Source of the DNA: a phage
Assembly: GCA_012813795.1 (NCBI GenBank)
Contig: GCA_012813795.1_4087.1
Direction: 5' to 3' (one strand)
Length of the DNA stretch: 64,000 bases
How positions within the stretch are numbered: the stretch's first letter is position 1; each line of letters begins with the position of its first letter. Shown piece by piece: positions 3,918 through 43,889 of this stretch. The position numbers and the translations under genes were made by a program. The notes beneath the pieces are model-generated. The model was not told where the DNA came from. It saw only the letters and a list, made by a program, of their open reading frames with translations, and made no database searches.

Positions 3918-4406
3918 ATGAGTAAATGGGAAATTAAACCTGATGATGCACAGTATTTGAAAGAAATTAAAGAGTTTGAAGGTACTATTGCTTTCCAAAC
4001 TAAATTAGGTTATTTCAAGAATGGTAAATTCAGAGTTTATAAAGATAGCCTAGGACTAGATACCATTGGTTACGGTCACTTAGTACTAAAAGGTGAAAAT
4101 TTCAGTGCAGGGCTAACTGAAGCAGAAGCAGAAGCACTACTTCAAAAAGATTCCCTAAATGCATACAGAGAAGCTAACGAGATTTATGATCAATTCGGTA
4201 TGTCTGCACCAATTCAGGTACAACGTGTACTTTGGATGATGATATTCCAAATGGGTAAATCTCGTGTATTGAACTTTAAGAAAGCGATGGCAGCATTGGG
4301 TTGTGGTGATTATAAAACCGCTGGCAAAGAAATGCGTGATTCCGCTTGGTATCGTCAAACAACTTCTCGTGCTGAAAAAATGGCAAGGATTGTTGAATCC
4401 GTATAA
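3918..4406 (+). CDS. T4-type lysozyme (glycoside hydrolase family 24), free paralog of the spike C-terminal domain
   Basis: 162 aa; EFEG...YKDSLG...DTIGYGHL catalytic Glu/Asp/Thr pattern, MIFQMG and SAWYRQTTSRA motifs; RBS AGGAGA 5-10 nt upstream; clearly alignable to residues about 725-887 of the spike protein. Confidence 0.85.
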   Translation: MSKWEIKPDDAQYLKEIKEFEGTIAFQTKLGYFKNGKFRVYKDSLGLDTIGYGHLVLKGENFSAGLTEAEAEALLQKDSLNAYREANEIYDQFGMSAPIQVQRVLWMMIFQMGKSRVLNFKKAMAALGCGDYKTAGKEMRDSAWYRQTTSRAEKMARIVESV

Positions 4407-4419
4407 ATGAGGAAAGTCT

Positions 4420-4815
4420 ATGGCAATAGTTTTTAAAGGTTTCTCTACTCCTGTTGTGGGTAAAACACAAACTCTGTATGATGCTGAGTTGGTGAGACAG
4501 GATTTGATGAACCACTTCAATACAAAGAAAGGTGAAAGAGCATTTGATGCTGATTATGGTTTCATTGCTTGGGATTTGATTTTTGAACTTGATGGTTATA
4601 ATACAAAAAATCTTTTAGAAGCTGACGCTCGTAGAATTATTTCATTAGACCCACGTTTGAATTTAAAAAATCTAACAGTTAGTAATGTTGAATATGGTTA
4701 TCGTTTGGACATAATTTTAGAGTATGTAATGCTTGATAAATTAGAACAACTTACTATAGTATTCGATGCCAGAAGTAATAATAGGATGGCAACGTTTACA
4801 ACATCTAAATTATAA
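4420..4815 (+). CDS. baseplate wedge protein, gp25/GPW-like
   Basis: 131 aa; size and pattern (KGERAFDADYGF...DLIFE) resemble T4 gp25 / P2 W family as recalled; sits between spike-lysozyme and gp6-like genes as in other contractile tails. Confidence 0.65.
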   Translation: MAIVFKGFSTPVVGKTQTLYDAELVRQDLMNHFNTKKGERAFDADYGFIAWDLIFELDGYNTKNLLEADARRIISLDPRLNLKNLTVSNVEYGYRLDIILEYVMLDKLEQLTIVFDARSNNRMATFTTSKL

Positions 4816-4822
4816 TTTACTA

Positions 4823-4848
4823 AGCACTCTTCGGAGTGCTTTTCTTTT
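4823..4848 (+). terminator. rho-independent terminator
   Basis: Hairpin AGCACTC-TTCG-GAGTGCT followed by TTTTCTTTT. Confidence 0.7.
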
Positions 4849-4914: not shown

Positions 4915-7900
4915 ATGTCACAACAAAAAAGACAATCTAATTTATACGCGGGGGAAGACTGGACCCAGGTATATGAAAGTTTCTATAAAATCAATCTGAC
5001 AGCTTATGACTTCGACACTATACGTCAAAGTATGATTGATTATTTGCGTCAAACATATCCTGATTCATTCAATGACTGGATTGAGAATGACCAGTTTATC
5101 TTCATTTTAGATACTATTGCAATGCTAGGACAAAACTTAGCGTTTCGTATGGATTTAAACACGCGTGAAAACTTCCTAGATACTGCTAGTCGTCGTGCAT
5201 CTGTGCTTAAATTAGCTAAAATGATCTCCTATTCACCTCGTCGTGCATATCCAGGGCGAGCAACAGCAAAACTAACTGAAATTAAAACGAACCAAGACGT
5301 TCGCAACAGCTATAACGAATCACTTAAAGATAAAATTATCCGTTGGAATGACCCAATGGACTCTAACTGGTATGAGAACTTTATTCTGGTAATGAATAGT
5401 GCATTTGTCAGTACTAACCAGTTTGGTAACCCAGTAAAACGTTTGGATATTAATGGTGTATCTCGTCATTTATATAGAATGAACACTTTACCTATGTCTG
5501 CACCTAATTTACCATTCACGGCTACTGTAAATGGTGAATCCATGACATTTGAGGTCGTAAACCCTGATATTAACGTTATTGGTGTTGATGAAAGACACCC
5601 TGAGCCACAAGAACAGAAATATATTGTGTATCAGAATGATGGTAATGGTTTTAGTTCACCTAATACCGGATTCTTTGTTTATTTTATTCAAGGAACATTG
5701 CAATATCAGGATTTCCAGTACGATGTTAGACAAGAAAACCGTATTCAGGATATTAACGTAGATAATATTAACGAAACTGACGTATGGGTACAGGAAATCA
5801 CAGAAGATGGCATAGTTCGCACTAAATGGACTAAGGTTCCATCAATGGAAAGTATTGCATATAACACAGTAACACGTCAACTTAAAACAATTTATGCTGT
5901 AACTACCCGTGACCGTGACCAAATCAGTATTAAGTTCCCTGATTCACGTAGTGGTGTTGTTCCGCGTGGAACATATCGTGTTTGGTATCGTGTAAGTAAT
6001 GGTGAAACATACAATATCAAAACTGCTGACATTCAAAACAAAAGTGTTAAGTACATTTACAGAACTAAATCACAATCTAACTATGAAAATAGTACATTAG
6101 ATATTAAATTTAGTTTACAATTTGAATCCGACCGTGCACAAAGTGCCGAAACCCTTGAACAAATAAAAGCTCGTGCACCACAAATGTATTATACTCAAAA
6201 CCGTTTTGTGAATGGTGAAGATTATAACATTGCACCATTGAGTCAAGGCAACGCAGTACTGAAATCTAAGGCGATTAACAGGATTTATAGTGGACAATCA
6301 AGATTTATTGATATAAATGACCCAACAGGTAAGTATCAGAACACCGATGTGTTTAGTGATGATGGTGCAATGTACAAAAATGTCACCAAATACAATAAAT
6401 CTGTAAATTTACCAAGTACTAAATCTAATTCTAGTATTGTTATTGATGATATTCAACCATTAATTGGTGAAAATGCTGTTATTCAGAAGTATCAAGCATA
6501 TCCACAGAATACAGTACGTGTTGAATTACAACAAAACTGGGTTCCATCATATAGTTCAAGCTATGCAACTAACACTTATGGTCGTATTGTTGGGGCAACT
6601 GGTACAATTTATGGTGATTATAAAGTTGGTACATTGATTAAATTTGGTAGTAGCTCAAATAATATCGTATGGGCTAGTATTGTTAATGTGTTACCAAACG
6701 GTTTTTATGTTCTAAGTACACCAATTTCTTCCTCAATGCAGATCCAAGAGTATATTAGTCCATATAGAACTCGTTTCAACACTGTTGAAGTTCAAAATAT
6801 AGCTGCAATGTTAGATAAGAAAACAAACTTCATTCTAATTTATGATATTGTATCCACTGCATGGGTTCCTTTGGAGATTACAACTACTAGTGATACTATA
6901 ACATACAATGGTTCGTTGGTGCAGGTGATGGTTAACATCCAATATACTGCTGAAACATGGGAATTTGATTCCAACGGTGTTGAATATGTCTTTGTTGGTG
7001 GTGAAAAAGTTCGTTTTTACTTTGTAAGCTCTAAGAAAATCACTGATATTAGTTCTGGTTCAGTGCAAAGTGATAAAATTGAGATTCTTTCATCGAACTC
7101 TACTAGTACTAGTAACGTAGGTCTAACCAATAACATTGATTTCCAGATTCTGGATACAATAAAACAAGAAAATGGTTATTTGGATGGTTCCAGAGTTGTA
7201 ATTACATCTGAAAGTATGGATAGTAATGGTATTCCATTAAATCCTAACCAATTTCAATCTATCGTCCCTGATTGGACTGGTGAAGATTCTAGAAAGTATG
7301 GTGGTATCTTGGTATTCCAACAAAATGAAGATTTCACTATTTCTTCATTGCCATTACCAAATTCATCCTTCACTATAATGGATTCAACATGGAATTATAC
7401 AATGGATCAGGCATTAGCTGAAACTAATGCGTATAAGAGACAGGAATTCATTCGTAATAATGAAATTCGTTCAACTACATTGAGTGAAGTATATAGTAAA
7501 GGTACGGGTTTTATTATTGCATTCCAATACGAAGGACAATATTACTTCATAGAACAAACCGTTGGTAATAACAATGACCGTTTGGGTGTTCTAATTCAGA
7601 ATATGACTGAAGTTACTGATCCAAGTGCTGCTACACCAGAAACTGCATTCTATCGTTGTATTAAAAACATGGGTACAAGTGTTGACACTAATAAAAAGCT
7701 TAATTATTATGGTTATAAGGATATTACATCTGAACTTACTATAAAAACTAATGCTAGAACGTCCATTAACTTTCACTGGAAACACTATGCACCAGATGAT
7801 AACCGAATCGACCCAAGCAGAACCAACTTAATTGATATGTATGTTTTAACAAACTCATATAAGACTGAAGTTGATATTTGGTTGAAGAATGGTGCTAAGG

Positions 7901-8379
7901 GTGATATGCCGAAACCACCAACCTCTGTTGAATTACAAGATATCTTCAAAGATGTTGAGAAGAAAACAGTAATTAGTGATAGTTTGATATGGCATAGTGC
8001 TGAATACTTACCATTGTTTGGTAATAGTGCTGCACCGGATTATAAAGCTGATTTCAAAGTAGTGAAATTACCGAATAGTACAATGAGTGATGACGAAATT
8101 CGACAAAGTATAGTTTCATTAACTAACCAGTACTTTGCAGTTGAGAACTGGGATTTTGGAGAAAGCTTTTATTATACTGATTTGTGTACATACCTTCATA
8201 CACAACTTGGTAGACATATTAGTACTGTCGTAATTGTAGCTCAAAATCCTAATTCTAAGTTTGGTTCATTGTTCGAGATACCTTCTAGACCTGACCAAAT
8301 ATTCATTAGTACTGCAACAGTTGATAACGTACAAATCGTTAACTCTCTTGCGAAAAGTAATATTAATATTGGTTTTTAA
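4915..8379 (+). CDS. baseplate wedge protein, gp6 / Baseplate_J-like (extended, 1154 aa)
   Basis: N-terminal 120 aa follow the gp6/J-family pattern as recalled from T4 gp6 (YDFDTIRQSMIDYL...FILDTIAMLGQNLAFRMDLNTRENFLDTA); RBS AAAGGA upstream; follows the gp25-like gene. Confidence 0.55.
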   Translation: MSQQKRQSNLYAGEDWTQVYESFYKINLTAYDFDTIRQSMIDYLRQTYPDSFNDWIENDQFIFILDTIAMLGQNLAFRMDLNTRENFLDTASRRASVLKLAKMISYSPRRAYPGRATAKLTEIKTNQDVRNSYNESLKDKIIRWNDPMDSNWYENFILVMNSAFVSTNQFGNPVKRLDINGVSRHLYRMNTLPMSAPNLPFTATVNGESMTFEVVNPDINVIGVDERHPEPQEQKYIVYQNDGNGFSSPNTGFFVYFIQGTLQYQDFQYDVRQENRIQDINVDNINETDVWVQEITEDGIVRTKWTKVPSMESIAYNTVTRQLKTIYAVTTRDRDQISIKFPDSRSGVVPRGTYRVWYRVSNGETYNIKTADIQNKSVKYIYRTKSQSNYENSTLDIKFSLQFESDRAQSAETLEQIKARAPQMYYTQNRFVNGEDYNIAPLSQGNAVLKSKAINRIYSGQSRFIDINDPTGKYQNTDVFSDDGAMYKNVTKYNKSVNLPSTKSNSSIVIDDIQPLIGENAVIQKYQAYPQNTVRVELQQNWVPSYSSSYATNTYGRIVGATGTIYGDYKVGTLIKFGSSSNNIVWASIVNVLPNGFYVLSTPISSSMQIQEYISPYRTRFNTVEVQNIAAMLDKKTNFILIYDIVSTAWVPLEITTTSDTITYNGSLVQVMVNIQYTAETWEFDSNGVEYVFVGGEKVRFYFVSSKKITDISSGSVQSDKIEILSSNSTSTSNVGLTNNIDFQILDTIKQENGYLDGSRVVITSESMDSNGIPLNPNQFQSIVPDWTGEDSRKYGGILVFQQNEDFTISSLPLPNSSFTIMDSTWNYTMDQALAETNAYKRQEFIRNNEIRSTTLSEVYSKGTGFIIAFQYEGQYYFIEQTVGNNNDRLGVLIQNMTEVTDPSAATPETAFYRCIKNMGTSVDTNKKLNYYGYKDITSELTIKTNARTSINFHWKHYAPDDNRIDPSRTNLIDMYVLTNSYKTEVDIWLKNGAKGDMPKPPTSVELQDIFKDVEKKTVISDSLIWHSAEYLPLFGNSAAPDYKADFKVVKLPNSTMSDDEIRQSIVSLTNQYFAVENWDFGESFYYTDLCTYLHTQLGRHISTVVIVAQNPNSKFGSLFEIPSRPDQIFISTATVDNVQIVNSLAKSNINIGF

Positions 8380-8388
8380 TAAAATCGT

Positions 8389-8412
8389 GGCGGCCTTCGG
8401 GTCGCCTTTTTT
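8389..8412 (+). terminator. rho-independent terminator
   Basis: Hairpin GGCGGCC-TTCG-GGTCGCC followed by TTTTTT, after the gp6-like gene. Confidence 0.65.
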
Positions 8413-8460
8413 ATAGCATAAATAAATCAAATGAATGAACGAATTTATGGAGTCCTATAC

Positions 8461-11400
8461 ATGACTAATAATTTTAAGTTTCTACCAACTAAAACGGCAG
8501 AAGCAGTACAACAGAAGCTTTTCATTAAAAGATTACCTGAATGGATGCAAGGCTTAGAAGACATTCAAAAGGTTAGTGATGATGTAATTCAACAATGGTT
8601 CAATCCAGCGGATAATGAAATCGTTGATGGATATATTGGTGATATGGGTTCTCCTGCTGCATCTGCTAAGATTTTCCTTGACGAATCAACCGTTGAACGT
8701 CAGCTATATCAATTATCAACAGCATATGTGTCTCGTAATGATGACACAAGCATTCGTTCGCTTCAATTTTATGATGATTTGGTTGGCTACATGGAACACT
8801 ATGGCACGTTAACTTCAAACGAGAGCCGTCTATTTTCTGGTAAGTTCTATTCTTGGACACCACCAATTAACCCAAACAAAATGACCAACTATAGTTCTTA
8901 TTTGTGGGATAGTAAAAATAGTTTTGGTATCACATCACCTGACTTTATTGTTATGGAACGTGGTGCTGATAACGGTAACACTTGGTCACTACAGAACTTT
9001 TGGTATACTATTGGACAAACCCTAGAAGATGGTACAGTACTAACTGCTGACATGACGCAGGATACTCGTTTTATTCGTGCACAAGCACCAATCATCGAAT
9101 ATAATAAAAACATCGAATTAATCAACTACGGAACAAATTTCCGTGGTATTGTTGACCTATTCTCTGATACAGTTAAACCAGAAGATATCGTTCAAAAGGA
9201 CGTTAACGATGGTATTCGTATCGATGGTATCATTCCACAAGATGGTATGCGTATTCTATTCACCAGTATCGGTAACGTTGGTGAAAACAACCGCATTTAT
9301 AAAGTTTTTATAAAGAAAATGCAAGATGGTTCTCGTACCTATGGTTTGGCACTAGATCCTGACGAGGAATCAGAAGAACGCCCAAGTGGTGAACCCCATA
9401 ACGGTGATGTAATTTTGGTGCGTGATGGTAATGTATATAAAAATACATCCATGTACTGGAATGGTGTTGATTGGGTTAGAGCACAAACCAAATCTGGTAT
9501 CAACGTGTTCCCACAATTCCAATTGTATGACCGTGATGGTTTCAAATTAAACGACACTACTATGTATCCATCAAGTAATTTCGTTGGATCATCACTATTT
9601 GGTTTCAAAATTAACTATAATTATGGCACTGATAAAGTATACGGTTATAATATTGAATTAGGTAATTATAATTACTACATGTACGAAAACTTTCTTCAAA
9701 GTGTTCGTTATACATATGATCATTTGGGTGTTGAAACAGAAATTTCTGGATTATATTACTATAATGTAGTTGGTAAAGATAATGAACTTCACCTTAAGAC
9801 CGATTGGGTTCGCTCAAAGGAAGATTCAAAACAATTTGTTAAACAAACACCACAAATCGAACATACTGATATGTATCGTGTATTCAATACTGTATTTGAA
9901 ATGGAAAACTTCAAAACTCCATTAGAAGGTATGTATGCATATGTCATTGAAGTTGATCGTACCTATCAATATTACAAAGAAGAACGTCAAACCTATATGG
10001 ATTGGCATGTAATTAGTGGTGAAGGTATTCAAAGTGAACGTTTCAATCGCACATTTGAATTAGCCCAGAAAATTATTGATGGTAAGAGTACTGAAATCAT
10101 TGAAATTCAAGTTGATGGTGTGGATGTAACCGATTATACACGTCATGTATATAATAACAAGGTTCAAAGCATCACTTTAGGGGAAGACGTTACTCTTAAA
10201 GATGAATCAGTAATTCAAATTAGAACATATAGCAGTACGGAAGTACCAAATAAAGAGTTGGGTGCATATGAAATCCCAATTAACTTACAAAATAACCCAT
10301 ACAACGATAATATTCTTTATATCAACCAAAGTAATTTTACATTACATTTTAAAGATATCATTCAAAAGAATATTACCAGTGGTTCAGTTGATGATTTCAA
10401 TGACTACGAAGAGCGTTTGTCTAAAGGTTTAGTAGATAACTCTGTAGGTACTAAGATTATCCAAAACGAAGCATCTATGCTACCGTTAATGGCACATTCT
10501 GCAAATGAAGACATTGACCTATTTGAATCTGTATTGTTTATGCAATCAGAGTACTTTCGTTTTGTAAACAAGTTCAATACACAAATGATTCGTTTGTATA
10601 ATGAGAACCCAGCAAACTTCTTAGCTAATAATGCTTCTAATATTGTTGATGAAATTCTAACAATTATTAATATGGGTCATGATAATACATTCCCATTCTA
10701 TTATGACAACGTGGCAAGTACTTCTGGTTTCATTCGTGCTTTTGTACCACCAACTCCACAGTTCTTAGGTATTTTAAAAGCTCACGTTCCAGAAAAAGCA
10801 ACATTTTTGAATGCTGGTAGTAAGCAAAGCTGCTATAACATCAGCCATACTGGTGCAATCACCAAAGCATACCGTGTAATTAACGGTGTTGATAAAATGG
10901 ATGACGTTATATATGAATTAGAAAATCGAATCTTCAATAGTATTGATGTTATTTTCAAAGATGAAGATTACCAACCTAAGCTAGATGCTTCTGACCTTTT
11001 CCCTACTCCGTATTTTAGAGATACAGAGTATAATGATGAAGAGAAGAAGAACTTACTACTACGTGGTTACATTAACTTCATCGCAACCAATGGTATCAGT
11101 AACAGTTCGCATGATTATGATCCAAATAACTGGATGACTTGGAATTATACTGGAACTTATTACATTGTTAATGGTCAACAAACACAAATACCAGCACGTG
11201 GTTCATGGCGAGCAATCTACACTGACCAATTTGGTACATATCGCCCAGCAACCCATCCGTGGGAAATGTTTGGATTCTCCCAACGTCCGGTTTGGTGGAA
11301 CCAAGAGTACGAACCAACAGCAGTTCAAGTTGGTGAACGCGACAGTGATGTTGTTTATGTATATGAGGCATTGGTTCTCAACGAACAAGGTAACATGGTC

Positions 11401-37564: not shown

Positions 37565-38494
37565 TTATACAGCCATTGGTGCTTTGATTGTTGGCATTGG
37601 ATTGTAATTCAAAAGTTTGAAAGAATCCATTGTAAAATCTTCAATATCGGTAATTGAAGGATCTAGCCATAGTTCTGGTAATTCACGTGGTTCACGTTGA
37701 AGTTGTTCTTTTACTTGTTCAACGTGGTTTTTGTAAATGTGACAATCACCACCATTCCAAATAAACTCACCAACCTCAAGTCCAGTGATTTGTGCAATCA
37801 TATGGGTTAGTAGTGAATAGCTACTAATATTAAATGGTACTCCCAAAAATAGATCCGCACTGCGTTGATGTAGAATACAGCTTAGCTTGCCCTGTACGAC
37901 ACAAAACTGTACAAAGCTATGGCAGGGTGGTAAAGTCATATCATCAAGCTCACCGACGTTCCAGGCACTTAGAATGTGACGGCGACCATATGGGTCGGCT
38001 TTAATACCCTCAATAACTTGTTTTAGCTGGTCAGTAACTCGACGCATAACAACACCATGAGCACCAGTATAATCAATAACTTTATAACCTTTATCTTTCA
38101 ATTCTTGAATTTCTTCAGTACTGGTACTGAATTTATAATCTTCCCATTCACGCCATTGCTTACCATAAACTGGTCCAAGCTCACCATTAGAATATCCAAG
38201 AGCTACACCTTGATTAAGGTAGTTATCTGTCCAAATTGTTTTCTTTTCCCAATCACGAGTGCCGTGTAGAATTTCACACAAGCGACGCTCATCATGAGAA
38301 CCTTCAATGAACCATAATAATTCTGAAGTCATTGCTTTCCAAGCTAAACGTTTGGTTGTCACTGCTGGAAAGCCTTGTTGAAGGTCAAAACGCATTTGTT
38401 GACCGATTAGTTTGATAGTACCTACACCTGTACGATCAGTACTTTCTACGCCTTCATCCAGAATTTTTTGATATAGTTCTTGTAGTTGTTTCAT
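37565..38494 (-). CDS. thyA: thymidylate synthase (ThyA family, with a small-domain insert)
   Basis: 309 aa; DRTGVGT, LAWKAMTSELLWF, ILSAWNVGELD, catalytic PCH and the dUMP-specifying Asn in GVPFNISSY; alignable along its length with bacterial ThyA apart from an insert of about 35 aa. Confidence 0.9.
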   Translation of the reverse strand: MKQLQELYQKILDEGVESTDRTGVGTIKLIGQQMRFDLQQGFPAVTTKRLAWKAMTSELLWFIEGSHDERRLCEILHGTRDWEKKTIWTDNYLNQGVALGYSNGELGPVYGKQWREWEDYKFSTSTEEIQELKDKGYKVIDYTGAHGVVMRRVTDQLKQVIEGIKADPYGRRHILSAWNVGELDDMTLPPCHSFVQFCVVQGKLSCILHQRSADLFLGVPFNISSYSLLTHMIAQITGLEVGEFIWNGGDCHIYKNHVEQVKEQLQREPRELPELWLDPSITDIEDFTMDSFKLLNYNPMPTIKAPMAV

Positions 38495-38497
38495 TGT

Positions 38498-39088
38498 TCA
38501 TCCTTGAAAAAATGTTGTAAAGTGCATCATATGCTTTTCTTGTGCATTTCTTGAGCCTATTCCCGTCCAATTTCCATGTGGCTTAGGTACTGATGCGGTT
38601 TCTTCGAATTCTTTTAGTACTGGATTATATGAATATACTTTTCTGTCATTAATGTCATAGCAGTATATTTCAGGATTATCAGTACTGTCAATATACATTT
38701 GTACAGCCCATGCAGTACCACCACTGACTTGAGTAGGTGAAACCAGTGATGCCATACAATAAACTCTCTCTGTGTTTAAAATTTGATATCTATTACGTGC
38801 TAATAGATTATAAACATATGAGCCAGGTTTAGGAACACGGCGTTGTAATGAATAACATGCCATGTTTAGTTGGTGTAGAATAGAACTATCATTCAAAATA
38901 TAAGATGGGATTTCTAATATAGTACTTTCATCAACACTATGATTATGATTTTTGAATGAAAAGTTAATTACATTAAAACCATTTTCCATAGCATATAAAG
39001 TAAAAAAGCGGTCTGCACCTTGTGCACCACCGCTATAAAATGTATTAGTTAATCCCTTGATTGCTTCATCAAGTTCATTTATCGTCAT
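38498..39088 (-). CDS. hypothetical protein with GGAQGAD Rossmann-like motif (possible SLOG/DprA-like nucleotide-binding fold)
   Basis: 196 aa; N-terminal FYSGGAQGADRF motif is reminiscent of SLOG/LOG/DprA-type Rossmann proteins; lies directly upstream of thyA in the same operon. Confidence 0.4.
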   Translation of the reverse strand: MTINELDEAIKGLTNTFYSGGAQGADRFFTLYAMENGFNVINFSFKNHNHSVDESTILEIPSYILNDSSILHQLNMACYSLQRRVPKPGSYVYNLLARNRYQILNTERVYCMASLVSPTQVSGGTAWAVQMYIDSTDNPEIYCYDINDRKVYSYNPVLKEFEETASVPKPHGNWTGIGSRNAQEKHMMHFTTFFQG

Positions 39089-39380: not shown

Positions 39381-40029
39381 TCTTACGCTCTGCAAAAACA
39401 AGTTTTAGTTTCTCAATTGCTTTGGTTTGAGAAATACCTTCTGGGAGTTCAATGTAAAAAACTTTCTTATCAGAATCAGTTTTCACATTCGTTTCGTTGG
39501 GACGAAGAGAAGGTTCTAGGTTATAAGCACGCTCATAATGCTCTTTAGATAATTGATCATATTTTGCAGCAGTTTTTAGTAGTTCATCAACAATAGTTTC
39601 ATCTTCGACTTTTGTATCTTGAACTTGTGGATTGAATGGGTTGTAATCTTTTACTTTACCATCTTCATGTTTTTTACTTTCATTACCGTCGATTGCATCA
39701 TTCAGTACATCAAGTGAAATCTTGTTGTTACCGCCAGTGTGCATGTCAATATCACAAGTACGGACCTTACGTAGATATTGTAGATTGTGAAGAACATCTA
39801 GCATTTTACGACCATCGAGATAACCTACTTGATGCATAACTTCCCAAAGTTCAACAGAAGCTTGTCCACGACCCATAACTAAATCGGTTACAGCAGATAC
39901 ATATGCTTCTGGAAGTGAGTCACGATACACCACTAGACAATGATCATGATCATCTGGAAGTGAACGCCAAACAACGAAAACACGAGAACCAGTATTACGA
40001 ATTACACCTGTGTGACGAATAGCAGCCAT
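39373..40029 (-). CDS. hypothetical protein
   Basis: 218 aa ORF with ATG/stop overlap with the upstream gene; no motif recognised. Confidence 0.5.
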   Translation of the reverse strand: MAAIRHTGVIRNTGSRVFVVWRSLPDDHDHCLVVYRDSLPEAYVSAVTDLVMGRGQASVELWEVMHQVGYLDGRKMLDVLHNLQYLRKVRTCDIDMHTGGNNKISLDVLNDAIDGNESKKHEDGKVKDYNPFNPQVQDTKVEDETIVDELLKTAAKYDQLSKEHYERAYNLEPSLRPNETNVKTDSDKKVFYIELPEGISQTKAIEKLKLVFAERKNG

Positions 40030-40271
40030 TATTCTTCCCCTTCTGTACCAGCGGTATCTTGTGCTTGAGCAGCAGCTTCTTCACGTTCTTTGATATCAGC
40101 AAGTGCTTTATCAGCAAATTTAACGAACTTAGAAACAATTGGTGCTACGTTCACTAGTTCATCAACTTGAAACGCATTACGTGCAACCGCAGATTCCATA
40201 ATACGAGCAGCGTTGATTAGGTCAACTAGGTCTAGGATTACTTCGTCTTGTGCATTGTTTTCAGTACTCAT
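40029..40271 (-). CDS. hypothetical small acidic protein
   Basis: 80 aa; first gene after the promoter at 40305-40332. Confidence 0.45.
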   Translation of the reverse strand: MSTENNAQDEVILDLVDLINAARIMESAVARNAFQVDELVNVAPIVSKFVKFADKALADIKEREEAAAQAQDTAGTEGEE

Positions 40272-40304
40272 ATATTACTCTCCATGTATGTTATTACAAT
40301 TTCC

Positions 40305-40332
40305 ATTATATCATAGTTAATTGGGTTGTCCC
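40305..40332 (-). promoter_or_regulatory. sigma70-like promoter (GGGACA-N16-TGATATAAT)
   Basis: Extended -10 TGATATAAT with GGGACA at -35 on the minus strand, just downstream of the vWA terminator and upstream of the 80-aa gene. Confidence 0.5.
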
Positions 40333-40337
40333 AATTA

Positions 40338-40368
40338 TAAAATAAAAGAGAACGACGAATCGTTCTCT
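40338..40368 (-). terminator. rho-independent terminator after the vWA gene
   Basis: Perfect 8-bp stem AGAGAACG / CGTTCTCT with a T-rich tail on the minus strand. Confidence 0.65.
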
Positions 40369-40378
40369 ATATTTATTT

Positions 40379-41854
40379 TTACGAACGTTGGCGTTTTTTG
40401 TCCGCTTCATATTCGTAGTGAACAGTTTCACCAAATGGTGCTACTTTGTTCGGGTTACTGTGGATTACAAACAGTGTTTTACAGTAGTTAGGATCACCCC
40501 ATGACTGCCACGGTTCACCATCGGTAAACATGATAAGCTGCTTAGGCTTATAATTGTCATGCTTCATGTGAACCCAAACTGCTTCAAAGTCAGTACCGCC
40601 ACCACCTTTAACTGGATATTCAAGAATCTTACGTTCTTCACCAGTTTTATAATCCATCACAGTATAAACTTCAGTATCAAATGTCATGATACGAATTTTA
40701 AACTGCTTGAATTGTTTAGTGATGCCTAGTACTTCACTGATGAAATCGCGAAGCATATCTTCACTGATAGAGCCTGATGCATCGAGTGCAATTGCAATAT
40801 CAATATCGTCATCTGGTTTCATGCCTGGGAAGATTGGATTCCCATAGAATGAACCGTTAGAACCAAAACCAGCACCCCACGAACGGCGGCTTGGGCTTTG
40901 ATAGGTCGCATCGGACTTCAACCAACTACGAAGAGTACGTTGAAGTTTAGAACGCCAGTCAATTTTTGGTTCTTTAAAGTTATTGATCATACGAGCGATT
41001 TCAGCAGGAGTACCACCTGCACGAGCAGCATTCATCATTGCTGTTTTGAAATCGTCCATGTATTCACGTTTTTGTGCTTCAGATGCACCACCTTCACCAC
41101 CTTCACCATCTTGTGGTACATCGTGTTGGTCAATGGTAGTGCCTTTGCCTTTACCATTTTGGATATCACCAAAAGTACCGCGTGATTTACCTTCACCTTC
41201 ACCACTACCAGATTGTGGCTGACCTTCACCTTCATCTTGATCTTGTTTATCTTCTTCTTCTAGAAGAATATAAATCTCTTCGGCGGTCATACCATCATAC
41301 TTCTTATCATACAACCATTGACTTTGAATCTTACCAATTTTTTCACGAACAATAATTTGGTTGATTGCGTAGTCTGCTGCACGGTTGTAGCGTTGTGGGT
41401 CACGCATACCACGACGAAGGAAGTGATCGTATGCACAGTGAAGAATTTCATGACAGATAACTGCAATCAGGTTTTCATCAGTCAAACCTTCGGTCATTTC
41501 TTTCAATTGTTCTTCAGTTACTTCAGGATGCTTCTCACGAATTGCTTCTTCGTATGCTTCTTTCTTGCTTGGGTCTTGAATACCCATGATAAATTCTACG
41601 TTATAGAATAAATGTTTACCATCTACTGCTAAGGTACGACACCATGTATTGTTTGCAACTGGACGCAGACGTGAAGCCAGTACACCAAAGAATGGAGCAG
41701 TTAACATCAGAGAAGTACGAGCAAGAATCAAACGGTCTTGGCATTCTTTCTGGAGTTGTGGTGTTACGTCGCTAAATTTCTTATCGGACATGATATTTCC
41801 TCGTTTAGTTAAGATAAAAGAAGGATACCATGTGGCATCCTTCTTGTCAAACAT
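40379..41854 (-). CDS. von Willebrand factor A (vWA) domain protein with N-terminal HExxH metallopeptidase-like domain
   Basis: 491 aa; HEILH zincin-like motif (VICHEILHCAYDH) in the N-terminal half; MIDAS-type DxSxS motif (ALDASGSIS) in the C-terminal half; Gly/Glu/Gln-rich linker; RBS AGGAAA. Confidence 0.75.
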   Translation of the reverse strand: MFDKKDATWYPSFILTKRGNIMSDKKFSDVTPQLQKECQDRLILARTSLMLTAPFFGVLASRLRPVANNTWCRTLAVDGKHLFYNVEFIMGIQDPSKKEAYEEAIREKHPEVTEEQLKEMTEGLTDENLIAVICHEILHCAYDHFLRRGMRDPQRYNRAADYAINQIIVREKIGKIQSQWLYDKKYDGMTAEEIYILLEEEDKQDQDEGEGQPQSGSGEGEGKSRGTFGDIQNGKGKGTTIDQHDVPQDGEGGEGGASEAQKREYMDDFKTAMMNAARAGGTPAEIARMINNFKEPKIDWRSKLQRTLRSWLKSDATYQSPSRRSWGAGFGSNGSFYGNPIFPGMKPDDDIDIAIALDASGSISEDMLRDFISEVLGITKQFKQFKIRIMTFDTEVYTVMDYKTGEERKILEYPVKGGGGTDFEAVWVHMKHDNYKPKQLIMFTDGEPWQSWGDPNYCKTLFVIHSNPNKVAPFGETVHYEYEADKKRQRS

Positions 41855-41865
41855 TCTTTTAGTTA

Positions 41866-43191
41866 TTAACCAAGAGAACGTGCTTTGCGTACTAGGTCAG
41901 AGTACTTCATAACGAAGTCTTTGAACGCTGGAACATCTTTGTACGCAATCGCTACCTTATGTTGAGTGATGGTACGAATTGCTAGTACTGCCAGTTCTGC
42001 CTGAGTTTCGGAGAAGTTACGGTCCAGGAAGGTGATGAAGTTGTTGCACAGCTTGCCCCACTCTTCAACTGGAAGACGTTGTTCTTGCTTCTCATTGTAC
42101 AGGTCGATAATTTTATAAACCAGATTCAGAGAGATGAAGTAGTTCGCAGAAATATCCAGCGTTGCATCAATCTCTTTAATCTCACCCTGTAGGATGGACA
42201 TAGTATCTGGTAGTTTAGATACGTTTTCTACGTATTCGATATATTCAGTTGCTACACCTTCACCAACACGACCAGCGATTAGAGCACGGAACACTTCTTT
42301 ATCAATGTTGTTGCCTTTCTTCAGGTCTTCGTAGCGTGCTACTGCTTCCCATGAACGTGGAGAAGTACCACCACTGTGAGAAGGATCTTGTGGGCTAAGG
42401 GTGTTGAAGTACTTAGCACCAGTGTTGTTGATGAACGCAACAGTACCTGGGTTCAAACGCTTAGCAATCGCGTAATCGTCAATCCAATCTTGATGGTAAG
42501 GAACCATTTCGATGTGGGTCATACGGTCACGTAGTGGCGTTGCCAGAGAGAACGTTACGCCGCCATCAGTTTCACGGTTACCTGCTGCGAGAATCAGTGC
42601 AGTCTTAGGTAGCTTCATCTCACCAACACAACGGTCGAGGATTAGCTGATAAGACGCTGCCTGTACAATCGGCATAGCAGAGTTAATTTCGTCAAACAGG
42701 ATAACACCTTTCCAATCTGGAGACAGTTTCAGTACTTTAGGTGCTGCCCATACAACTGCTGTTTCAGCAATGTAATCTTTAGCTGTTTCCAGTTCAGATT
42801 CAATCAGTTGTTTGCCATCCATATCCAGGAACACTTTTTCAGGGACTGGGATACCACGTAGGTCACTTGGTTCAATCTGTGACAAACGGAAGTCGATGAA
42901 GTTAGTGTCTTGGTCAATCAGTTTTGCTTCAAACGCTGCCAGTTCGCGGCGAAGTGCATCAGCATTTTCAGCATCAACTTCAATTTGTTGTTTCATGAAC
43001 TCGATTTTAGCCAAGTTATCCTTACGAAGAGGATAGTTCTCGTCAGCGTATTGACGTGCAATCGCAGACTTACCGATACCAGGGCTACCCCAAATCATCA
43101 GACTGTCCTGAATTTTATCTGCCAGAGCCATAGCCATTTTTGCTTTCTTAGGAGTCAGTTTTACGTTCAGGATATCTTGTTGTTCGCTCAT
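41866..43191 (-). CDS. AAA+ ATPase, MoxR/CobS-like
   Basis: 441 aa; Walker A GSPGIGKS, Walker B ILFDEINSA, sensor region LILAAGNRETDG; immediately upstream of the vWA gene (the classical MoxR-vWA pairing). Confidence 0.8.
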   Translation of the reverse strand: MSEQQDILNVKLTPKKAKMAMALADKIQDSLMIWGSPGIGKSAIARQYADENYPLRKDNLAKIEFMKQQIEVDAENADALRRELAAFEAKLIDQDTNFIDFRLSQIEPSDLRGIPVPEKVFLDMDGKQLIESELETAKDYIAETAVVWAAPKVLKLSPDWKGVILFDEINSAMPIVQAASYQLILDRCVGEMKLPKTALILAAGNRETDGGVTFSLATPLRDRMTHIEMVPYHQDWIDDYAIAKRLNPGTVAFINNTGAKYFNTLSPQDPSHSGGTSPRSWEAVARYEDLKKGNNIDKEVFRALIAGRVGEGVATEYIEYVENVSKLPDTMSILQGEIKEIDATLDISANYFISLNLVYKIIDLYNEKQEQRLPVEEWGKLCNNFITFLDRNFSETQAELAVLAIRTITQHKVAIAYKDVPAFKDFVMKYSDLVRKARSLG

Positions 43192-43357
43192 GTGTATTTT
43201 CCTTTTGTTGGATAAAAAACTAGGTTTATATTATAACCAATCCGTTGGCAAAAGTAAAGGAACTGTGTTAAAAGTATTTTAACTTATCAGTTCCTTATCT
43301 TCAGTGAATCATCCGTGTGTTTAAAAAGGTCAATCTTGTTTGCCGTCTTGATGTGGT

Positions 43358-43385
43358 CATTATATCACATCGTTCAGGCTTGTCA
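43358..43385 (-). promoter_or_regulatory. consensus sigma70-like promoter (TTGACA-N16-TGATATAAT), proximal copy
   Basis: Minus strand reads TTGACA AGCCTGAACGATGTGA TATAAT; upstream of the AAA-ATPase/vWA operon. Confidence 0.65.
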
Positions 43386-43451
43386 ACAACTTTTTTTTCT
43401 TTCTTTTTCAATCTCACATCTTGTGATTTTGAAATCTTGCTTCGTGACGTT

Positions 43452-43479
43452 CATTATATCACGTTAATCTGTACTGTCA
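43452..43479 (-). promoter_or_regulatory. consensus sigma70-like promoter (TTGACA-N16-TGATATAAT), distal copy
   Basis: Minus strand reads TTGACA GTACAGATTAACGTGA TATAAT; in tandem about 94 bp upstream of the proximal copy. Confidence 0.65.
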
Positions 43480-43544
43480 ACATCTTTTTCATTTTTATTT
43501 TCGAAGCGTTCTACATATGCATCGAAAATAACTGCTTGAAATCA

Positions 43545-43889
43545 TCACCGACACAATGTTAATTCAGTAACTACCATTGCGTCGGAGAGATATATGTAGT
43601 AGCCATCAACATAATAAGGACTTCTACATATTCTATCAAGCGATGTAAATATTATAGAGCTTTTGAACTCTCTTAGCAAGGGGATTTTTGTAAATTCATA
43701 AAGATTATTTTCTTCACAAATCATAAATCCATACTTACTAAGCCTCAAACCACCACCAGTTCTGAAGTTTTCAAAAATAGACATCAGAAGCATTCTGTCA
43801 GTGATTTCAGCGTCCGATTCATGTACTTCTTTAACTTTTATAAGTACTTCATTTTGAAATTCAGTGCTGTTAGTGGGTTGTGGTATCAT
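43545..43889 (-). CDS. hypothetical protein
   Basis: 114 aa ORF, tightly packed with upstream ORFs. Confidence 0.4.
   Translation of the reverse strand: MIPQPTNSTEFQNEVLIKVKEVHESDAEITDRMLLMSIFENFRTGGGLRLSKYGFMICEENNLYEFTKIPLLREFKSSIIFTSLDRICRSPYYVDGYYIYLSDAMVVTELTLCR

Follow-up and report, generated by a model that had tools for sequence, protein, structure and literature searches.

An Asteriusvirus copy of the N4 gp24/gp25 module: a MoxR-class ATPase paired with a putative metallopeptidase-vWA protein

What are the two adjacent minus-strand genes at positions 40,300 to 43,500 of a 64,000-nucleotide (nt) stretch of phage DNA (contig GCA_012813795.1_4087.1 of GenBank assembly GCA_012813795.1; the whole stretch is called the window below), and what might they do for the phage? 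One codes for a MoxR-like AAA+ ATPase and the other for a protein with a von Willebrand factor A (vWA) domain and a HExxH motif, and an initial annotation, made from the sequence, presented them as a candidate two-gene system. The system is not new: the two proteins are homologues of gp24 and gp25 of phage N4, the corresponding pair in RaK2 is annotated as N4 gp24/gp25-like, and such a pair has been described by Iyer et al. 2021 (Viruses 13:63, PMC7824862). The pair is the Asteriusvirus copy of the already described N4 gp24/gp25 module (PHROG 1297 and PHROG 1314). As to its function, we rate at slightly better than even the chance that the two proteins form a machine for ATP-driven remodelling and cleavage, made before the late proteins and directed at a host or replication-phase target.

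Over region 40300-43500 the window shares 99.3% identity with Escherichia phage A4 (an Asteriusvirus of 355 kb, ON286972) and 85-88% with 121Q, PBECO4, G17 and related jumbo phages. In A4 the genes are annotated 'ATPase' and 'VWA domain-containing protein', and several small genes and a thymidylate synthase gene lie downstream of them. The ATPase matches N4 gp24 with E = 1e-27 and the vWA protein matches N4 gp25 with E = 8e-30, in both cases over the full length apart from insertions; against PHROG 1297 and PHROG 1314 the respective values are 6.5e-106 and 3.1e-125. The N4 genes (AAA ATPase and vWFA) resemble those studied here in being adjacent, in gene order, in the HExxH motif (HELWH in N4 gp25), in the metal-ion-dependent adhesion site (MIDAS) and in Pfam architecture. 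The genes and their motifs are the following.

41866-43191, minus strand: MoxR-class AAA+ ATPase gene, 441 amino acids (aa), from the list of open reading frames (ORFs)
43089-43066, minus strand: ATPase Walker A, GSPGIGKS
42705-42688, minus strand: ATPase Walker B, VILFDE
42588-42574, minus strand: ATPase sensor 1 (by position), AAGNR
42537-42523, minus strand: ATPase PLRDR (R223)
42360-42349, minus strand: ATPase PRSW (R279)
40379-41791, minus strand: gene for the putative zincin (DUF2201_N) plus vWA (DUF2201) protein, 470 aa counted from M22
41452-41423, minus strand: HEILHCAYDH, containing the HExxH motif (HEILH itself at 41452-41438)
41380-41360, minus strand: AADYAIN
41260-41084, minus strand: acidic/Gly linker, predicted disordered
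40894-40877, minus strand: conserved PSRRSW
40783-40769, minus strand: MIDAS, DASGS
40606-40592, minus strand: MIDAS, GGGGT
40531-40517, minus strand: MIDAS, MFTDG

The ATPase reading frame agrees with the initial annotation in position. Conservation was analyzed in 119 homologues of the ATPase and in 120 homologues of the vWA protein, the latter down to ~40% identity. In the ATPase set, the Walker A residues G38, K41 and S42, the Walker B residue E168, and N205, R223 and R279 are invariant, while G35 and D167 are kept in at least 90% of the sequences. N205 (AAGN), R223 (PLRDR) and R279 (PRSW) follow one another in the order expected of sensor 1, arginine finger and sensor 2, roles that are assigned by position only. 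In a structure search the fold lies nearest to MoxR/AAA_5 members (midasin, dynein, NorQ, CbbQ) and not to other AAA+ clades. The protein itself stays below the Pfam gathering cut-offs (17.6 against 27 bits for AAA_3, 15.1 against 22 bits for AAA_5), and it belongs to these families by transitivity only, because it is its shorter homologues (~360 aa, 30-35% identity) that carry AAA_3 (PF07726), AAA_5 (PF07728) and bpMoxR (PF20030). A sequence search of PDB chains gave nothing useful for the ATPase, whose profile matched Walker-A stretches only. Structure and profile searches together place the protein in the MoxR/AAA_5 group, as initially proposed, and gene 1 encodes a MoxR/AAA_5-class AAA+ ATPase in which every catalytic motif, the sensors and the arginine finger as assigned by position, is intact.

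For the second gene, initially placed at 40379-41854 on the minus strand, the reading frame stands and the start moves. The true start is almost certainly M22 at 41791, which gives 470 aa, because a GAGGA ribosome-binding site precedes the ATG at 41791, the vWA genes of A4, G17 and WPEC3 are annotated from the equivalent ATG, and in G17 a 1-nt indel just upstream of that ATG breaks the frame of the 21-codon extension.

The product matches DUF2201_N (PF13203, 'putative metallopeptidase domain') with 123 bits (cut-off 23.2, E = 2.2e-35) and the Pfam family DUF2201 ('VWA-like domain') with E = 1.8e-20. Its AlphaFold2 model (predicted local distance difference test, pLDDT, of 78) comprises an N-terminal helical domain, a disordered linker (residues 189-234 of the model), a second disordered segment and a C-terminal alpha/beta domain, and the Rossmann-like vWA fold at the C-terminus matches vWA domains in the structure search. 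H114 and H118 of the HExxH motif and D140 are invariant in the 120 homologues, and E115, C119 and H123 are kept in at least 90% of them; H123 and D140 are the candidates for a third zinc ligand. The MIDAS is complete, with D337, S339, S341, T400 and D424 all invariant. The homologue gp39 of phage LUZ7 passes the cut-offs of both Peptidase_M48 (22.2 against 20.3 bits) and VWA_CoxE. Disorder is predicted (pLDDT <50) for the Gly/Glu/Gln-rich linker (residues ~178-236), whose length differs from one homologue to another. The HEILH motif, the vWA domain and the linker had all been recognized in the initial annotation, and what the sequence of gene 2 points to is a putative HExxH zincin domain and a complete-MIDAS vWA domain, joined by a disordered acidic/Gly linker.

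Two further features of this protein may be recorded here. Part of the linker, its GEG units, is encoded by a 9-bp tandem repeat, CACCACCTT, present three times at 41086-41112 (given on the plus strand). The sole difference from the A4 protein is one such unit, a 3-aa GEG indel, so that linker length shifts by repeat slippage between near-identical phages. Segment 294-324, which includes PSRRSW (40877-40894), is predicted to be disordered (pLDDT <50) yet is conserved: P300, R302, W305, G308 and G323 are kept in at least 90% of the homologues and P322 is invariant. A docking peptide is one possible role for it; self-cleavage or autoinhibition at this site is another.

Databases offer another identity for the same protein. 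PHROG 1314 bears the label 'HNH endonuclease', which is repeated in many GenBank/RefSeq records, always as annotation only. An HNH or homing endonuclease deserves practically no credence: no HNH family of Pfam matched, either in the N-terminal domain (E up to 10) or in the protein as a whole (E up to 0.1), DUF2201_N and the DUF2201 vWA domain account for the whole length, and vWA domains are what the structure search matched. The label is a misannotation that has been propagated.

Could the pair instead insert a metal cofactor, in the manner of CobS/CobT, BchI/BchD, NorQ/NorD or CoxD/CoxE, and so mature a phage or host metalloenzyme, for example one of nucleotide metabolism? The ATPase counts NorQ and CbbQ among its nearest neighbours in structure and the vWA protein has NorD among its matches, with sequence identities of only 13-16%; the VWA_CoxE match of LUZ7 gp39 and the presence of cyanophage MoxR-like ATPases among the distant matches of the ATPase point the same way, as do the thymidylate synthase or dCTP deaminase genes found nearby in this phage and in N4. 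However, neither protein matched the CobS/CobT family, the contrary case named in the initial annotation, in Pfam and NCBIfam at E up to 0.1; NCBIfam gave no meaningful match for either protein, and the only chelatase-type signal was a sub-threshold Walker-A match to Mg_chelatase. A chelatase role also leaves unexplained the putative zincin domain with its invariant HExxH, which has no counterpart in those systems, and the phage and plasmid contexts of the module are not metabolic. We consider this role very improbable.

How far does the module extend beyond the jumbo phages? By tblastn, 698 phage records contain the vWA protein and 823 contain the ATPase. Counted by host genus, the two agree closely: the numbers of vWA and ATPase records were 214 and 215 for Escherichia, 105 and 112 for Pseudomonas, 97 and 102 for Vibrio, 26 each for Pectobacterium, 17 each for Cronobacter and for Achromobacter, and 16 each for Campylobacter. 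Pairs were confirmed in LUZ7 (gp37/gp39, beside helicase and DNA polymerase genes), in the Vequintavirus RudolfGeigy, with the genes on different strands and 4 kb between them, and in the PA5oct-like phage Deifobo. The module is also present in 74 plasmid records. Paraburkholderia and Burkholderia plasmids carry clusters of the form ATPase-x-vWA beside VirB/type IV secretion system genes, a Rhodovastum plasmid has such a cluster near toprim and ParB genes, and on Synechocystis pSYSA the genes sll7029/sll7028 lie among toxin-antitoxin, CRISPR and DUF262 genes. The two genes thus co-occur across several phage families and plasmids. A cluster of a MoxR-like ATPase and a vWA protein (pCAR1 ORF100-103) is reported as conserved in the IncP-7 plasmid pCAR1, IncH R478, IncT Rts1 and two integrative conjugative elements, SXT and R391 (PMC2642839); none of these five is among the best 25 of the 74 plasmid matches.

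The genes that accompany the pair differ between these contexts. In plasmids a protein of ~300 aa is encoded between the ATPase and vWA genes (5034-5984 and 8036-8935 in two loci) and in LUZ7 one of 153 aa (4379-4840 of the locus), neither with a Pfam match; in jumbo phages no gene lies between the two. The intervening protein may be a third component or a substrate. In plasmids, LUZ7 and RudolfGeigy, a Pfam scan of the genes that separate or adjoin the pair found no domains and nothing that points to a partner or substrate, and the neighbour gene in Deifobo gave only sub-threshold endonuclease-like Pfam matches. The 'anti-sigma factor' next to the RudolfGeigy vWA gene is not an ATPase homologue and has no Pfam domain. 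One record filed as a plasmid, CP057073.1 (137,565 bp, E. coli), has a vWA match with the identity and coverage seen in rV5-like phages as well as a length typical of their genomes, and is probably a Vequintavirus genome.

The surroundings on pSYSA, and the proposal that bacterial vWA-MoxR systems with effector peptidases are conflict systems (PMC7159879), suggest a role in superinfection exclusion or in competition among mobile elements, as an element-borne conflict system and not an agent of host takeover. However, the vWA protein matched none of the defence models of PADLOC 2.0, and the matches of the ATPase were at noise level only (E 0.016 and 0.021). The VMAP/beta-propeller component that defines the ternary systems (Kaur et al. 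2020) is not annotated beside the pair in the phages examined, and no dedicated VMAP profile search was made. The N4-like core set, in which DNA polymerase and the single-stranded DNA-binding protein (SSB) stand beside gp24/gp25 (PMC4193335), is also easier to reconcile with a part central to the phage life cycle than with accessory defence cargo, and we regard a conflict system as improbable.

When would the pair be expressed? Its signals, again all on the minus strand, are listed here in the direction of transcription.

43453-43480, minus strand: promoter P1, TTGACA-N16-TGATATAAT, 12/12, extended -10, A-rich upstream tract
43359-43386, minus strand: promoter P2, TTGACA-N16-TGATATAAT, 12/12, extended -10, A-rich upstream tract
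43247-43296, minus strand: leader hairpin AAGGAACTG...CAGTTCCTT (43296-43257) with T-rich tail TACTTTTGCC
43230-43258, minus strand: P3, promoter-like TTTACT-N17-TATAAT, 10/12, weaker, overlapping the tail of the leader hairpin
41808-41845, minus strand: intergenic hairpin, a 12-bp stem (41845-41818) with tail TTATCTTAAC, between the ATPase stop and the vWA start
40337-40368, minus strand: intrinsic terminator closing the unit, a 9-bp GC-rich stem with T-run

Own promoters and a terminator are present, as the initial annotation of a discrete transcription unit had it, and the pair is one operon with terminators at its bounds. Both tandem sigma70 promoters were confirmed as 12/12, with coordinates corrected by one base to 43480-43453 and 43386-43359. 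They are the sole perfect TTGACA-N15-18-TATAAT matches in the window, where 0.23 are expected, and two or more such matches occurred in 3 of 100 shuffles. P2 is fully invariant in A4, G17 and WPEC3; the -35 hexamer of P1 is invariant in G17 and WPEC3, and RaK2 has a 12/12 counterpart. The closing terminator, also correctly annotated, has its 9-bp stem at 40368-40347, followed by TTTTATTTTAT, and an equivalent strong hairpin with T-run follows the vWA gene in EJP2, pEa44, XaC1 and G17.

The leader hairpin, placed between P1/P2 and the ATPase gene, was absent from that first account. The leader folds better than shuffled sequence (z-scores -2.5 and -3.3), and an ARNOLD-predicted terminator is annotated at the same position in G17. 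Hairpin and CTTTTG tail are kept, with an A-T to C-G change that is compensatory, in RaK2, EJP2, pEa_SNUABM_44, fHe-Yen9-04 and XaC1, and in each of these an extended -10 promoter precedes the hairpin. In EJP2 the hairpin lies upstream of, not downstream of, the 12/12 promoter, so it does not always separate a strong promoter from the gene. It resembles an intrinsic terminator or attenuator. Specifically, it may be a leader attenuator that leads to delayed-early expression, a situation comparable to that of the T4 delayed-early genes. Alternatively, it may be the source of a short leader RNA or small RNA, or it may be the terminator of the upstream structural operon. The weaker P3, also not noted at first, is kept in G17 and WPEC3 and has a 9/12 counterpart in RaK2. 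The initial statement that the unit is strongly expressed and probably early is uncertain and overstated, given the conserved terminator-like leader hairpin and N4 homologues that are middle, not early, genes.

The intergenic hairpin was likewise missing from the initial annotation. Each of the six lineages examined has a hairpin with T-rich tail at this place; their stems are unrelated in sequence and the z-scores range from -2.9 to -5.4, and a structure kept across six lineages with unrelated stems is good evidence for a functional RNA structure. Most simply, it is a putative partial terminator or attenuator that lowers the output of the vWA-peptidase relative to that of the ATPase. When 40200-43700 was scanned against Rfam, neither hairpin matched a known RNA family.

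Other elements of the leader stand beside these. The first transcribed bases after the -10 (43340-43352) carry a motif, (C/T)A(T/A)(C/T/A)AAGAC(G/A), that is common to Asteriusvirus, RaK2, EJP2, pEa_SNUABM_44 and fHe-Yen9-04, and after the leader hairpin comes another motif in non-coding sequence, CAA(A/C)(C/T)GGATT(T)G. Their conservation across genera whose proteins are ~59% identical suggests that both are putative binding sites of a regulator. A short leader ORF, annotated in WPEC3, was rejected, the candidate ATGs in the window overlapping the -10 hexamers and having no ribosome-binding site.

How might the two proteins work together? If NorQ-NorD, CbbQ-CbbO, RavA-ViaA and midasin are taken as analogues, the ATPase would form a hexameric ring, and the vWA domain would be the adaptor whose MIDAS links this ring to a target protein. 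Cleavage of the protein that the ring has engaged or remodelled would then fall to the putative zincin domain on its flexible linker, and the pair would act as a two-component ATP-dependent metalloprotease with a job like that of FtsH. The intergenic hairpin probably lowers the amount of vWA-peptidase relative to ATPase, which would suit a ring with few adaptors; the precedent for this idea is RavA-ViaA, with ~350 RavA against ~90 ViaA molecules per cell in a passage of PMC3893208.

Expression would come before that of the late genes, in the delayed-early or middle period, because the promoters are of sigma70 consensus, the leader hairpin is terminator-like and the N4 homologues are middle genes. 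Specifically, N4-like phages have 14 core genes, gp24 and gp25 among them, and in N4 these two are transcribed in the middle period (PMC4193335; also PMC2784036). In the LUZ7 transcriptome the pair is on the early/middle strand and all genes of the opposite strand are strictly late, in a paper that does not name gp37/gp39; a literature search for transcription data from RaK2-like phages found none. The target is more likely to be a host or replication-phase protein than a virion component, since the module occurs on conjugative plasmids, on one plasmid rich in defence genes and, in N4-like phages, in the replication/middle region.

Several points weigh against this proposal. As to cleavage, both fold searches with the vWA protein gave vWA matches only, and because these filled both lists the structure search did not confirm a zincin fold. 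A sequence search of PDB chains gave nothing useful for this protein, and a profile search with the N-terminal domain found no solved relative, only a weak match of the HExxH helix to selecase MJ1213 (E 0.24). The literature search found no experimental or functional study of any member, whether N4 gp24/gp25 or DUF2201. As to the target, the pair lies directly downstream of a long same-strand run of structural genes, in A4 and in the window; in roseophage RPP1 a 'second structural module', of mid-phase structural genes, lies near the gp24/gp25 homologues (PMC4193335); and the MoxR-vWA proteins of Acidianus two-tailed virus (ATV), the one experimentally supported viral system, are cited for tail development in the passages that PMC7824862 and PMC7159879 give to them.

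The last three observations favour a virion-assembly chaperone and processing protease, in which folding or assembly of structural proteins would be the work of the pair and their trimming that of the fused peptidase. Iyer et al. 2021 (PMC7824862) proposed this role for the pair as found in jumbo phages of group 2.2. However, the module is also found on conjugative and non-mobilizable plasmids; plasmids make no virions, and the distribution therefore argues against a function restricted to virion assembly. The N4/LUZ7 copy lies in a middle/replication block on the strand opposite the late structural genes, adjoining helicase, DNA polymerase and dCTP deaminase genes. In the window the pair has its own sigma70-type promoters and terminators, with no co-transcription with the structural genes, and neither protein is annotated as structural in A4, G17 or RaK2, though their neighbours are. 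We judge virion assembly rather unlikely.

Returning to the remodelling and cleavage machine that we favour, a more specific form of it can be stated, which we put forward tentatively, as possible but doubtful. The pair would be a two-component AAA+ metalloprotease used by phages and conjugative elements shortly after entry, to remodel and cleave a conserved host protein such as a defence, nucleoid-silencing or replication-control factor, with the intergenic hairpin setting a low ratio of adaptor to ring.

The residual interest lies in the role of a very widespread core module and in its conserved hairpin architecture, the pair itself being catalogued and having a near-identical annotated copy in A4. 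In N4-like phages its conservation equals that of DNA polymerase and SSB, and the module is present in ~700-800 sequenced phages of several families as well as on plasmids. A host-directed ATP-dependent protease, if true, would explain core genes of therapeutic N4-like, rV5-like and jumbo Asteriusvirus/Alcyoneusvirus phages; a core module that ranks with the most widespread uncharacterised ones of phages would then be a host-directed protease and not an assembly chaperone, and the widespread 'HNH endonuclease' misannotation would be corrected. The leader and intergenic hairpins are simple handles on the control of expression and stoichiometry.

A few observations concern the neighbourhood of the operon and the window at large. 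Directly after the operon terminator, at 40305-40334, a promoter-like TTGGGA-N18-(TG)ATATAAT would serve the next gene (40029-40271, 80 aa, no Pfam match), and the same arrangement of terminator then promoter is seen in EJP2, pEa44, XaC1 and G17. In a Pfam scan of the four small genes downstream in the window, three had no domains and the fourth had only a weak match to the SLOG family. This fourth gene (38498-39088, minus strand, 196 aa), just upstream of the thymidylate synthase gene (37565-38494), matches YAcAr (PF10686) with E = 7.5e-4, below the cut-off, and its counterpart in WPEC3 is labelled 'DprA-like DNA recombination-mediator protein'.

The extended -10 motif TGATATAAT occurs 11 times in the window against 2.0 expected, a number reached in none of 100 shuffles. 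Its sites include 20801, 21030, 23901, 35533, 40305, 55553 and 59163, and several are just upstream of gene starts and have no good -35 hexamer. The motif looks like the general promoter type of the phage, and a perfect TTGACA accompanies it only at P1 and P2. Strong depletion is seen for the T4-type late promoter motif TATAAATA, with 1 found against 8.4 expected, and it is of no use for contrasting the pair with the neighbouring structural genes; apparently these T4-related jumbo phages do without gp55-type late promoters of sequence TATAAATA.

How, finally, does the pair compare with known systems? FtsH, an AAA+ ring fused to a HExxH zinc protease, is a functional analogy only: it is a single polypeptide of a different AAA+ clade, membrane-anchored and without a vWA domain, and there is no homology at the family level. 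CobS/CobT, including the cyanophage 'CobS', is alike in combining an AAA_5-like ATPase with a vWA partner; CobT, however, has no HExxH domain, and the context of the pair here is not cobalamin metabolism. The adaptors of NorQ-NorD and CbbQ-CbbO also lack a peptidase, and these systems activate or metallate enzymes (Rubisco, nitric oxide reductase) without protein cleavage. The pair of ATV, p618 (MoxR) and p892 (vWA), is like the present one a viral MoxR-vWA pair, at the superfamily level; it belongs to an archaeal virus and has no fused peptidase. The pair that Iyer et al. 2021 describe in group 2.2 T4-related jumbo phages, citing ASV44729.1 / ASV44728.2, is a MoxR-vWA pair with fused metallopeptidase; it has the same domain architecture and is very probably the same gene pair. 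Their report covers jumbo phages only, whereas we trace the pair also to N4-like, Vequintavirus and PA5oct-like phages and to plasmids. Compared with N4 gp24/gp25, the jumbo-phage proteins are ~90 aa longer. The ATPase has two lineage-specific inserts relative to gp24 and the other short homologues, at residues ~52-95 (a helical hairpin) and ~118-146, and the vWA protein has an insert of ~35 aa after residue 68 and a much longer low-complexity linker than gp25. The two modules differ also in transcription, which depends on N4 RNA polymerase II (RNAPII) in N4 and on host-type sigma70 promoters here.

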